Positions 35,928 to 52,406 of a DNA stretch of 64,000 nt are shown piece after piece; within the stretch, counting starts at the first letter, position 1, and every line of letters begins with the position of its first letter. Both the position numbers and the translations under genes were made by a program. Under the pieces are notes generated by a model. That model saw only the letters and a list, made by a program, of their open reading frames with translations, did no database searches and was not told the DNA's origin. The DNA comes from Eledone cirrhosa (lineage: Eukaryota): positions 437,162,001 through 437,226,000 of the forward strand of contig OZ024740.1 in the NCBI GenBank assembly GCA_964016885.1. The letters run 5' to 3'.

Positions 35928-36130
35928 ATATATATATATATATTATATATATATATATATATATATTATATATATATATATATATATATATATATATATA
36001 TATATATATATATATATATATATATATATATATATATATATATATATATAACGAAGGAAATGTGGTAAGGAACCAGGTGGACCATAACGCACCAAAGTAC
36101 TCAATACTTGAGGTAGTAGAGTGGGTAATA

Positions 36131-36242
36131 GGAACCAGTAAGACCCCGACAGCTGAGCTCAAGCCGTTTCGACGGCTAATTCTGGACTAAATGAACATTT
36201 ATCCTGGTATTTAAATAGCCGATCTTCTCAAGGGGTAATTCC
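36131..36242 (-). ncRNA. Type I hammerhead ribozyme, U3-A8 variant (inverted copy)
   Basis: Reverse complement of 38171-38282. Confidence 0.75.
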
Positions 36243-36327
36243 ATATATGGTCAAAGTGATTGTCAAAAATCAGTAGTAATTCTGTGGTTGCAAATTAGTA
36301 GGGGAGATGGTGGCTAAACCTGCCAGT

Positions 36328-37078
36328 AGGAAATATCCTACTGTCCAGATCCCATTAGCGGAACCAGCAGGAGACACCGCCGCTCACGCAATGTAACATG
36401 GTTCAATCCTCCCCACAACGCAGAGGTGACTACTCCCATCGGGAAACTATTCTTTAGGCTCATTGAAAAACACTTCCCATTACAACACCGCTACCACAAC
36501 ATAATTAACAAAAATACCATCAACTCTCTTACAGCACTACACCAAACTTCGCACAAAACATCGTCTCCTCTAACAACAAAAAACTCAACCCCGATGGCAG
36601 AAATAACCTAAATAGCAGTGGAGAACCGACCAGGAGGTGTAACTGCCCGGATAGATCTATTTGCCCACTCGACAATAGATGCAGAGACCGTAATGTGATC
36701 TACCAGTGCAACGTGAGGACGGATACCTCCAACAAAGCCTATATAGGACTTACCGCATGTGACTTCAAGACCCGGCTATACCAACATAGACATACCTTCC
36801 GAAACCCGGCCCGGCGTCACGCCACTACACTTTCGGGCCACATATGGGACCTCAAGGACAACAACATCACCTATGATCTCACTTGGAGATTACTGTCCAG
36901 AGCCAATTCTTACACGGGAGGACGCCGTCCGTGCAATTTATGCTCGGAGGAAACTTTACAAATGCTGTTTTCGACGGACCAACTCCTAAACAAGAAAGAT
37001 GAACTGGTTACTGCATGTAAACATAGATTGCGTAGGACTTACCTCGCCCTCAAACCCCATAATGACCCGGGGGGGTAG
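36328..37078 (+). pseudogene. 5'-truncated copy of the array PLE ORF (linker plus GIY-YIG) with a 1-nt deletion
   Basis: Matches 39858-40609 except CATCAACTC versus CATCAAACTC at about 36523. Confidence 0.93.
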
Positions 37079-48875: not shown

Positions 48876-49048
48876 TATTACCCACTCTACTACCTCAAGT
48901 ATTGAGTACTTTGGTGCGTTATGGTCCACCTGGTTCCTTACCACATTTCCTTCGTTATCTAGCTCCTACTCCCGTAGTAGAGCACTTTCCGACCCTACCA
49001 CGCCGTATCCAGACTTTTCCGCTAAGCTCAATTCATTTCACCCGCACC

Positions 49049-51202
49049 ATGCGAAAACACAACATTGACTTCTCTACCAAGAACATCCCAATCCCACCGA
49101 AAAAACTTTACCTTCGGATGCTCACGCAAAAAATTGATCTATTTGCGAAAAGACTTAGATGGAGAACTTTTTTCTATGACAGATATTGCGACAACCAAGA
49201 CTTCGGCACCAAGGAGAGATTCGGATTTATTACCTACAAATCTCCGCCCCTGAACCCCTTGCTCGCACCCTTCGAGAATGACCTCTTCCAACTGGTCAAG
49301 AATATTAAATTTAAACCCAGACACAACCGATTCCTACAAAAACTCCGTAGCAACTTAACAGAGTATGATAACACAAATGACATCATGGTGCATTCGGATA
49401 AAACTGGGAACCTATACTTTGTCAACCCTGACAGATACCACACACTGATCAGGAGCAGCCTAAACTCCACCTATAAAAAGGCCAACCACTCTTGCATCGA
49501 GGACATAAATCGAGATGGACAACAAATCACCTCCAGCCTCGGGGTCGCCGACCGCACGGAACCTCTAGACCCACGGACACCATACTTCACACTGAAGGAC
49601 CATAAATCCGATTTTGACCGTAAACCCTCCATCAGGCTTATTAACCCAACGAAGTCCGACATAGGGAGAATCAGCAAAAAAATCCTAGACCGCGTGATAC
49701 TAAAAGTCAAGCAACACACCCGACTTAGCCTATGGATCAACACCCAGGAAGTAATCTCCTGGTTCAGCAATATGGAGGATAAACGAGAAACTAAATTCAT
49801 ACAGTTCGACATAGAGAGCTACTATGCTTCAATCACCTTACCGCTACTTACTGCCGCCTTGGACTTCGCCGAAACACTCGTGCCCATCACCGACCAGGAA
49901 AGAAAAATCATCCTCCACGCCAGGAAGACAGTCTTACTCTTTGACGACTCTAAATGGATAAAAAGAGCTCCCGACTCACCCTTCGACGTCAGCATGGGCG
50001 CCACGGATTCGGCGGAGGTCACTGATCTTATAGGATTATTCCTAATAGCCAAACTCACTGATATGTTTCCTGCATTCGGTGGTGGATTGTACCGTGATGA
50101 TGGGCTCCTTACCCTTAAAGGGTACAACCCCAGTAGTACAGATCGGGTCCGGAAACAATTAATCAGATTCTTCCGCGACTGGGGATTTAAAATAACCCTA
50201 CAAACGTCCCTGACCCGAGTAAACTTCCTGGACGTAACCCTCGACCTCGAAAACGACCTGTACTACCCATACAGGAAACCTAATGACAATCTGCACTACA
50301 TCCACCGCCGATCAAACCATCCTAGGAACATCACAAACAACCTGGTCAAAAACATCTCCCTCCGCATATCCCGTTTGTCAGCTAATGAGCGGATATTCGA
50401 TGAACATGCGCCTTATTACAACCAGGCCCTCAAGCGGAGTGGTTTCCGGGAGGAAATATCCTACTGTCCAGATCCCATTAGCGGAACCAGCAGGAGACAC
50501 CGCCGCTCACGCAATGTAACATGGTTCAATCCTCCCCACAACGCAGAGGTGACTACTCCCATCGGGAAACTATTCTTTAGGCTCATTGAAAAACACTTCC
50601 CATTACAACACCGCTACCACAACATAATTAACAAAAATACCATCAAACTCTCTTACAGCACTACACCAAACTTCGCACAAAACATCGTCTCCTCTAACAA
50701 CAAAAAACTCAACCCCGATGGCAGAAATAACCTAAATAGCAGTGGAGAACCGACCAGGAGGTGTAACTGCCCGGATAGATCTATTTGCCCACTCGACAAT
50801 AGATGCAGAGACCGTAATGTGATCTACCAGTGCAACGTGAGGACGGATACCTCCAACAAAGCCTATATAGGACTTACCGCATGTGACTTCAAGACCCGGC
50901 TATACCAACATAGACATACCTTCCGAAACCCGGCCCGGCGTCACGCCACTACACTTTCGGGCCACATATGGGACCTCAAGGACAACAACATCACCTATGA
51001 TCTCACTTGGAGATTACTGTCCAGAGCCAATTCTTACACGGGAGGACGCCGTCCGTGCAATTTATGCTCGGAGGAAACTTTACAAATGCTGTTTTCGACG
51101 GACCAACTCCTAAACAAGAAAGATGAACTGGTTACTGCATGTAAACATAGATTGCGTAGGACTTACCTCGCCCTCAAACCCCATAATGACCCGGGGGGGT
51201 AG
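49049..51202 (+). CDS. PLE RT plus GIY-YIG, intact, 717 aa (copy 4, Leu variant)
   Basis: Protein identical to copy 2 (T at 49701). Confidence 0.95.
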   Translation: MRKHNIDFSTKNIPIPPKKLYLRMLTQKIDLFAKRLRWRTFFYDRYCDNQDFGTKERFGFITYKSPPLNPLLAPFENDLFQLVKNIKFKPRHNRFLQKLRSNLTEYDNTNDIMVHSDKTGNLYFVNPDRYHTLIRSSLNSTYKKANHSCIEDINRDGQQITSSLGVADRTEPLDPRTPYFTLKDHKSDFDRKPSIRLINPTKSDIGRISKKILDRVILKVKQHTRLSLWINTQEVISWFSNMEDKRETKFIQFDIESYYASITLPLLTAALDFAETLVPITDQERKIILHARKTVLLFDDSKWIKRAPDSPFDVSMGATDSAEVTDLIGLFLIAKLTDMFPAFGGGLYRDDGLLTLKGYNPSSTDRVRKQLIRFFRDWGFKITLQTSLTRVNFLDVTLDLENDLYYPYRKPNDNLHYIHRRSNHPRNITNNLVKNISLRISRLSANERIFDEHAPYYNQALKRSGFREEISYCPDPISGTSRRHRRSRNVTWFNPPHNAEVTTPIGKLFFRLIEKHFPLQHRYHNIINKNTIKLSYSTTPNFAQNIVSSNNKKLNPDGRNNLNSSGEPTRRCNCPDRSICPLDNRCRDRNVIYQCNVRTDTSNKAYIGLTACDFKTRLYQHRHTFRNPARRHATTLSGHIWDLKDNNITYDLTWRLLSRANSYTGGRRPCNLCSEETLQMLFSTDQLLNKKDELVTACKHRLRRTYLALKPHNDPGG

Positions 51203-52294
51203 ACTAGGGCTATAACACCCCAGTTGCCGATTTTGCAATGGGTAACCCCTGCTTGCCAAGGAAGACGTAAGATCTTCTTTGTATTCTTTTATCGCATCCT
51301 TTATTTCCTTCCCCCCTCTCTCCTTTGTCCTTCTACCCCAGCTCTTCTCCTTTGTCGGCGTCTTTTCTCGCCCACCCGAGGCTGCCCTTTGGCCCCATGT
51401 AGCCTTAGTACCCCCACTCCCCCCTCCCCTAGTCTTTGATAGATTTGGCGGACTCCGCCCTTTATAGCAGTTGGCTTAGACCCCGGATACTTGCCCCCCT
51501 TTTCCGACCGCTCCCACTATTCTCTGTGCCCTCTATATTTCTTAGTGGCACTTATGCCTTATTTTTTCGTTTCAGTATTTCTTGCTTCGCTTTTCTTCTG
51601 GGCGGGGTGGATTCTGAACTTATTTCTCCGTATTCTACCTTTATTTCGTACGAACTTTCATGTAGCTTGTTTTAGATCTTTTAGAGTTAGCATTAGTATA
51701 TATTTTTCCCGGGACTCAGAATTATTATGTCGTACAAGTTCACTTTGCTGCACTGGGTCGTTGCTGGCCCGGGATGGAAACCTTTATTGTTTATTTCGTG
51801 GTAGTCTCTTTAGTATTTTGGCCCCTTTTGTTGACCAGTCACCGTATCATTTACGTACTTATACCTCTTAAAAGGGTCCTTGCCTAATTCGTCCCACCTA
51901 GTTCTTTTACTTATTTCCTTATTTATTTATTTATTTATTTATTTACTTCTTTCTTTCTTTCTTTATTTTATTCTCGCCTAACAATAGCCTGACACCTAGG
52001 TCGTAGAATTTAATTTTTTCTTTACACTTATTTGCTTTTCTTCACTCTCAGTATTTTTTCTTTCCTATTTTTACCCCCCATTGTTCTACCTACCGTTCCG
52101 ACTTCCTCCCCCTCCCCCTCCCCTGTATCTTCTTTGACCTCATGCCCAGCTGTAGCTGGCACTACCAACGCTTGATTGGGTCTACTCCACCCCCTCCCCT
52201 CTTTCTCCTACTGGCAGGTTTAGCCACCATCTCCCCTACTAATTTGCAACCACAGAATTACTACTGATTTTTGACAATCACTTTGACCATATAT

Positions 52295-52406
52295 GGAATT
52301 ACCCCTTGAGAAGATCGGCTATTTAAATACCAGGATAAATGTTCATTTAGTCCAGAATTAGCCGTCGAAACGGCTTGAGCTCAGCTGTCGGGGTCTTACT
52401 GGTTCC
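52295..52406 (+). ncRNA. Hammerhead ribozyme, U3-A8 variant (terminal copy; the array ends at its last base)
   Basis: ...GTC GGGGT CTTACT GGTTCC is followed after one C by (AT)n. Confidence 0.78.

Follow-up and report, generated by a model that had tools for sequence, protein, structure and literature searches.

We analysed a 64,000-nt stretch of the Eledone cirrhosa genome (hereafter the window; contig OZ024740.1, positions 437,162,001 to 437,226,000) containing, at 36328-52406, a tandem array of a Penelope-like element (PLE) with a hammerhead ribozyme in every unit. The array is a very young retrotransposon insertion made up of 4.55 direct units and one inverted arm. With about an even chance of being right, we propose that a ribozyme-cut RNA, in a form predicted to be a 3531-nt circle, was copied by reverse transcriptase (RT) over at least 2.55 rounds, and that a two-unit block was likely duplicated later at the DNA level. 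The family has been recently active and thousands of its insertion ends appear to map the ends of the copied templates to the base. This end map provides indirect genomic evidence for in vivo cleavage by a PLE hammerhead, and it bears on how the pseudo-long terminal repeat (pseudo-LTR) of these elements is regenerated.

All coordinates are positions in the window, and unit positions are counted from +1 = 38266, the first base past the predicted cut. The array is a direct head-to-tail tandem with a period of 3531 bp whose outer ends both abut (AT)n (35928-36047 on the left and 52407-52432 on the right). On the plus strand, a 5'-truncated unit (the pseudo-LTR, 36328-38265) is followed by four units running from cut to cut at 38266-41796, 41797-45327, 45328-48858 and 48859-52389. 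The units differ by one single nucleotide polymorphism (SNP), and the partial unit lacks 1 bp at 36522; they are otherwise identical. SNP alleles alternate along the array (39108 C, 42639 T, 46170 C, 49701 T), and comparison at a lag of 7062 gives zero differences, so that units 1-2 equal units 3-4. Each full unit has an intact open reading frame (ORF) of 717 amino acids (38456-40609, 41987-44140, 45518-47671 and 49049-51202, all on the plus strand), the Pro at residue 218 alternating with Leu from ORF 2 onwards. Upstream, 36048-36331 on the minus strand is an inverted arm that spans unit positions -184 to +100, overlaps the direct arm by 4 nt, contains its own hammerhead copy (36131-36242, minus strand) and bears the long (+100) end of the family. 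The first-pass annotation, prepared from the letters alone, had described about 4.6 near-identical units over 36048-52406; the unit count is close, with 36048-36331 lying outside the tandem as the inverted arm. It passed over this arm, the SNP alternation and the 10,459 copies of the ribozyme 3' half discussed below, while its four intact RT-GIY-YIG frames are all present.

One hammerhead-like fold per unit, as annotated previously, is found at 38171-38282 and, by periodicity, at 41702-41813, 45233-45344 and 48764-48875, all on the plus strand; the fifth (52295-52406, plus strand) closes the array, which stops at +17, the short end of the family. It is of type I with a long stem II and a palindromic stem III loop, and combines a 3-8 pair core (UUGAGAA, 38182-38188, the U3:A8 variant) with GAAA (38243-38246), an NUH site (GUC, 38263-38265) and three stems. 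The canonical CUGANGA pattern misses it because of this core; natural ribozymes with a U3:A8 pair exist and are active in vitro according to PMC3088659. Further hammerhead-like motifs of the U3:A8 type were noticed in unrelated repeats of the genome (L056, L062, L070 and others). The minimum free energy fold of the region has the three-stem topology, and the predicted cut (38265/38266) lies 190 nt ahead of the ATG, in line with the earlier placement.

Within the stem II loop we noted TATTTAAA at 38196 and two A residues downstream, one at -45 (38221, within TCATTT) and one at -41 (38225, within TTAGTC, 29 nt past TATTTAAA), which we take to be TATA-like and initiator-like, respectively. We infer a promoter at 38196-38225 on the plus strand with transcription starting inside the loop at -41/-45. 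A promoter in this place would yield a transcript that starts with the hammerhead 3' half and ends with a whole hammerhead, and a co-fold of the two transcript ends retains three stems. As a test of a cap-derived extra G, filler bases at -41 joins were inspected; both G and C were seen. AATAAA is absent from the sense strand of the unit and, as stated before, none follows the array ribozyme, unlike those at 17247, 35884, 54184 and 55234. On the antisense strand, seven AATAAA signals lie in the equivalent of 37516-37838 (3' untranslated region), making an antisense transcript possible. One public run of unknown kind (X5) has raised depth at 37500-38440, falling near the first antisense AATAAA; it was not used as evidence because contigs show neither level nor strand.

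Exact copies in the 3.0-Gb genome number 10,459 for the ribozyme 3' half, 2,144 for the 5' half and 186 for the ORF start, and +1 to +25 is found 7,461 times genome-wide. The first 100 of the 186 ORF starts listed gave 80 loci, taken as stretches of at least 10 kb, some of them truncated; together with 40 short loci and further long ones, end pairing was analysed over 136 stretches. A survey of other loci for 3' ends at the ribozyme, suggested in the first-pass annotation, gave a uniform picture: in 83 of 83 pairs of head-to-head arms, an end at +17 to +20 is combined with one at +100, both in (AT)n, this count taking in pairs with matching end motifs while diverged copies drop out. Both fixed ends are also present in four public runs, with raw-read counts of 2925 and 7398. 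The earlier observation that the right array end coincides with the final base of the extended stem I (52406) is thus correct as to position, but the end is one of two fixed throughout the family and not specific to the array. The two ends, which bound a tail at 38282-38365 (plus strand), are best understood as reverse-transcription start sites, one per target strand.

Most insertions of the family take the form of a hairpin about 180 bp long, with arms stopping between -45 and -35 and a junction individual to each copy. Because junctions vary between copies, we rejected the idea that these hairpins are a single self-copying family. Joins near -38 number 5,946 genome-wide, older subfamilies included, and among the matches listed none of 50 clearly passes -46, although the search pattern allowed passage. 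A second, smaller class of 299 joins lies near +6, of which 50 were listed and sorted by eye. Both arms end at +1 in 22 of the 50, and 12 of these carry filler bases that exclude a palindromic join; a further ten pair an arm ending at +1 with one ending at +2 to +6. An arm ending exactly at the predicted cut is hence present in 32 of the 50 short joins listed. The class stopping at the cut made up two of 63 matches in an unbiased list. Stops immediately behind GGGG that carry added bases agree with run-off from the 5' end of an RNA, and on the strength of these ends the ribozyme likely cleaves in vivo.

Long arms behave differently at the same positions. Among 70 arms that complete a unit, eight end before the second cut and 62 reach it; 59 of the latter pass -90 and three end at about +1, -26 and -68. 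One extra arm outside the 70 (L137) ends at -40. Stops at -41 thus account for one of 73 passages, a number that includes the inner array units, while linear promoter-driven RNA predicts 25-40%; the binomial chance of one or fewer in 73 is 2e-8. Of 212 copies with the 5' half, 205 have kept the spacing across the cut, the others comprising two deletions and five in which the pattern was broken downstream. Partial copies agree with their own full unit in 2971 of 2990 lineage-informative comparisons (37 pairs), compared with 81% for other loci, which makes it likely that the same template was read more than once. We favour a closed RNA as the simplest account of such repeated reading. Opposite arms of an insertion agree in 3365 of 3420 comparisons with one clear exception (L071), in which the two arms carry alleles of different lineages at 43 of 1471 sites; L038-L039 is a similar case, suggesting that two RNAs may be present per insertion complex.

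Multimers at unit spacing, for which a survey had likewise been suggested, occur at six of the 80 loci (two with 2, two with 3 and two with 4 ORF starts). One circle read once should produce units differing by private changes only, and none of the six multimers has this pattern; instead, at three loci besides the array, identical units form blocks next to diverged ones. Two units at C2:11.1 Mb differ at 0 of 3431 sites and the partial one at 9 of 1338; C2:51.2 and C2:320.5 Mb have upstream units without differences and a last unit that departs from them at 3 and 6-7 sites, respectively. The second four-ORF array, at C1:91.4 Mb, has four alternating sites, and each of its units has private changes besides. 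Such patterns suggest that duplication or conversion acted on the DNA once the element had inserted. In the 36328-52406 array the SNP position lies outside the partial unit; both alleles could thus be present only once two or more full units existed, and a single copying of a two-unit block then gives C,T,C,T. A dimer circle or a strict alternation of two RNAs would fit this array and was rejected, being broken at C1:91.4 Mb; the partial copy there matches the adjacent unit in its alleles at three sites. A second source haplotype for the T allele was also rejected: the allele is found exactly at two other loci only, both of diverged lineages, and in no other young copy. Seven loci carry the haplotype of the array and the array is the only one of them that is a multimer, so there is no linear multimer source in this assembly, and the six other loci have 1-3 private substitutions each. 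Between the arms of the C1:91.4 Mb array, a tandem repeat of a 55-nt ORF piece, more than 60 copies in number, was noticed (L033, C1:91.489-91.493 Mb), which could reflect reiterative copying or later expansion.

The mechanism we propose distinguishes three kinds of template. RNAs that start at -41/-45, lacking the ribozyme 5' half, would give the thousands of 180-bp hairpin insertions, and RNAs with the ribozyme cut as their 5' end would give hairpins of about 120 bp. On templates in which neither end is present, of which a covalent circle would be the simplest form, arms could extend past one unit and rebuild the pseudo-LTR. Each target strand would be primed at one of the two start sites (+17 to +20 or +100), and for the array a two-unit block would finally have been duplicated at the DNA level, or doubled by assembly. 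A broader interpretation, which we put forward tentatively and with less confidence, is that of an autonomous retrotransposon travelling as a protein-coding RNA circle, with its promoter in the stem II loop and its intermediates preserved by the genome. The two ends of the transcript would assemble one ribozyme, cleavage would remove a 41-nt leader and the exact 3531-nt monomer would be ready for closure, while uncut transcript ends, cut ends and more-than-unit copies would form a genomic fossil record of the process. The first-pass annotation had proposed self-cleavage, circularisation and rolling reverse transcription for the array. At the family level this model is supported by arms at the cut, scar-free passage, the lack of a promoter stop and the agreement of partial copies with their own full unit; as a single rolling event for the array it is not supported, given the C,T,C,T order and the block patterns of three other multimers, and the array itself is less telling than had been held. 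The resulting predictions are exact: a transcript start at 38221-38225, a cut at 38265/38266 and a 3531-nt circle.

Several observations weigh against this proposal. The hammerhead fold is as stable as shuffled sequences (z -0.09), and an Rfam scan of the 64-kb window detected no hammerhead. In 10 of the 50 listed +6 joins the stem III palindrome is the join site, so structure alone also produces joins, and the remaining eight are of other kinds. For anole Poseidon, PMC11167929 reports that insertion in vitro did not depend on ribozyme cleavage and that the cut was not the end point of any RNA reads. The array may also have been the source from which its haplotype spread. A mixed linear template or gene conversion accounts better than one circle for C1:377.7 Mb, where two alleles absent from the upstream units are common to the last unit and the opposite arm. 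A cluster of seven among 137 long-arm ends falls at unit positions 2547-2551 (equivalent to 37281-37285), where a second TTAGT motif lies ahead of a C-rich tract; this may be a second transcript start or a pause after the tract. The last two points would suit a scheme without any circle, in which linear read-through RNAs, left uncut and transcribed from multimers or host-driven loci, are the templates of long arms, multimers result from unequal exchange at the DNA level and cleavage leads only to dead-end short insertions. DNA-level duplication is indeed evident in at least three of the six multimers, e.g. at C2:11.1 Mb, and PMC11167929 proposes a multi-copy linear mRNA and reports that uncut RNA is the main substrate. 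We nevertheless consider this scheme unlikely, though not negligibly so. With one promoter per unit, stops at -41 should be many times more frequent than observed; multimers are confined to few loci, yet partial and full copy match in many sub-lineages (e.g. L181); 29 of 68 second-round arms go past position 2547; and an inherited parental junction was not seen by eye in the insertion stretches inspected.

Jumps of the enzyme between templates, leaving at -35 to -44 and landing on other 3' ends (L051, +918; L076, +250; L080, +295; L121, +326), also count against the circle since they establish that a non-covalent route exists. Repeated reading could accordingly be imagined with the enzyme jumping precisely from the RNA 5' end to the cut 3' end, splinted by stem I or by the 41-nt terminal repeat which a promoter-to-cut RNA has by construction. 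This is improbable in our view, as three of the four jumps carry extra bases in contrast to the clean passages of the cut, and failure at -41 is usual during a first round and seldom seen during a second one. Assembly may have doubled a 7062-bp block, leaving a true locus of 2.55 units; this would explain the identity of units 1-2 and 3-4 and would alter only the last step of our proposal. It seems rather improbable given that the C1:91.4 Mb array alternates too, with private changes in every unit, so such arrays arise naturally. Finally, the entire 4.55-mer could stem from one continuous rolling pass on a monomer circle. Seamless joints, otherwise identical units and the family-wide indications of a closed template speak for such a pass, but a template base would have to be read in two ways, or gene conversion would have to follow, to yield the alternating SNP. 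Moreover, with less than 10% survival per unit (186 vs 2,144 copies) far fewer than one four-ORF array is expected in 80 loci, whereas two were found, both alternating. We regard this possibility as improbable too.

The 717-residue protein contains FDIESYY and YRDDG as well as VIY...YIG near the C-terminal end, indicative of RT and a GIY-YIG-like nuclease. Pfam gave no match for it; 2049 of 8000 scored proteins matched, most of about 700 residues and at about 40% identity, and the best-matching one carries PF01541. The element has a single RT plus GIY-YIG ORF, a pseudo-LTR, an inverted 5'-truncated copy and a tail at one end, as EN+ Penelope-like elements do. The Hydra clade is described in PMC8557442 by DKT, RW(K/R), a CxCx5C linker, the lack of CCHH, and CxxC plus CxH near the catalytic E and N. 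Corresponding motifs are present here (HSDKTG, RWR, CNCPDRSIC, CNLC and CKH, with one Cys between VIY and YIG), and insertion into (TA)n is shared as well. Based on these motifs and the published description, the element would be a PLE of Hydra-clade type, departing from the general traits of the clade (canonical core, less than 3 kb) by its U3:A8 core and 3531-bp unit. Naiad/Chlamys was rejected since the nuclease is C-terminal, not N-terminal, and the motif DKT, not DKA. Assignment to non-LTR retrozymes was rejected too, these being non-coding and 170-400 nt in size and the present unit being coding and 3531 nt long.

Hydra-clade elements (PMC8557442) resemble the array in their C-terminal GIY-YIG-type nuclease, (TA)n target, hammerhead and partial tandem with an inverted 5'-truncated copy; different here are the 3.5-kb unit, the core, the roughly 10,000 ribozyme-half copies, mostly as 180-bp hairpins, and arrays in which as many as four ORFs are intact. 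The Anolis carolinensis element Poseidon (PMC11167929) likewise has a tail defined by two internal RT starts past the cut, extension of both target strands and an AT-rich target. In the present family the tail is about 80 nt with both starts ahead of the ORF, and genomic ends mark the cut at which the Poseidon study found no reads ending. A circular template for PLE tandems (cutting, ligation and copying of more than one unit) was proposed tentatively in 2014 (PMC4209133); ours is the same model, now backed by end distributions in genomic DNA, and what we add is the map of insertion ends. Regeneration of the pseudo-LTR has been stated as an open problem (PMC2377424), and inverted junctions have been ascribed to self-priming (PMC3846280). 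PLE insertion ends at the ribozyme cut were not reported in the open-access titles and abstracts we searched.

Non-LTR retrozymes (PMC7229834; 10.64898/2026.07.22.740005) share tandem units with one type I hammerhead each and a link to PLEs; their circles have been shown, whereas for the array, whose unit encodes its own enzyme, a circle is only predicted. The family itself seems to have spawned a retrozyme-like array at C2:356.03 Mb (L070:4285-6522), where a 299-nt unit that goes back to the element of our array is repeated about 7.5 times, each copy having a full hammerhead with a stem II loop 20 nt shorter. This small array ends at +100 in (AT)n, its unit has no other exact match in the genome and two neighbouring units have a common variant; it looks like a newborn retrozyme. 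At another locus (L146:3050-3550), a 224-nt hammerhead-bearing unit is present twice plus a part at an inner arm end, starting exactly at +1.

Several other repeats share the window with the array. Another PLE lies at 30254-33785; it has inverted ends, its 775-amino acid ORF is read from the minus strand, and 33560-33587 holds a canonical hammerhead. An RT/GIY-YIG fragment at 56663-57823 (minus strand) has a canonical hammerhead pattern downstream at 55282-55305, and 62800-64000 is a decayed relative of the array ORF belonging to a different family. Hairpin insertions of other families were found near (AT)n at 16897-17286 (with a hammerhead-like motif), 54910-55128, 61304-61931 and 62302-62647, and short two-arm insertions may be general to PLEs in this genome. 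Four minus-strand ORFs with helicase and Rep-like motifs at 22617-26134 are presumably Helitron-like. Two different 34-bp satellites occupy 1-13008 (383 copies) and 15572-16348 (23 copies).

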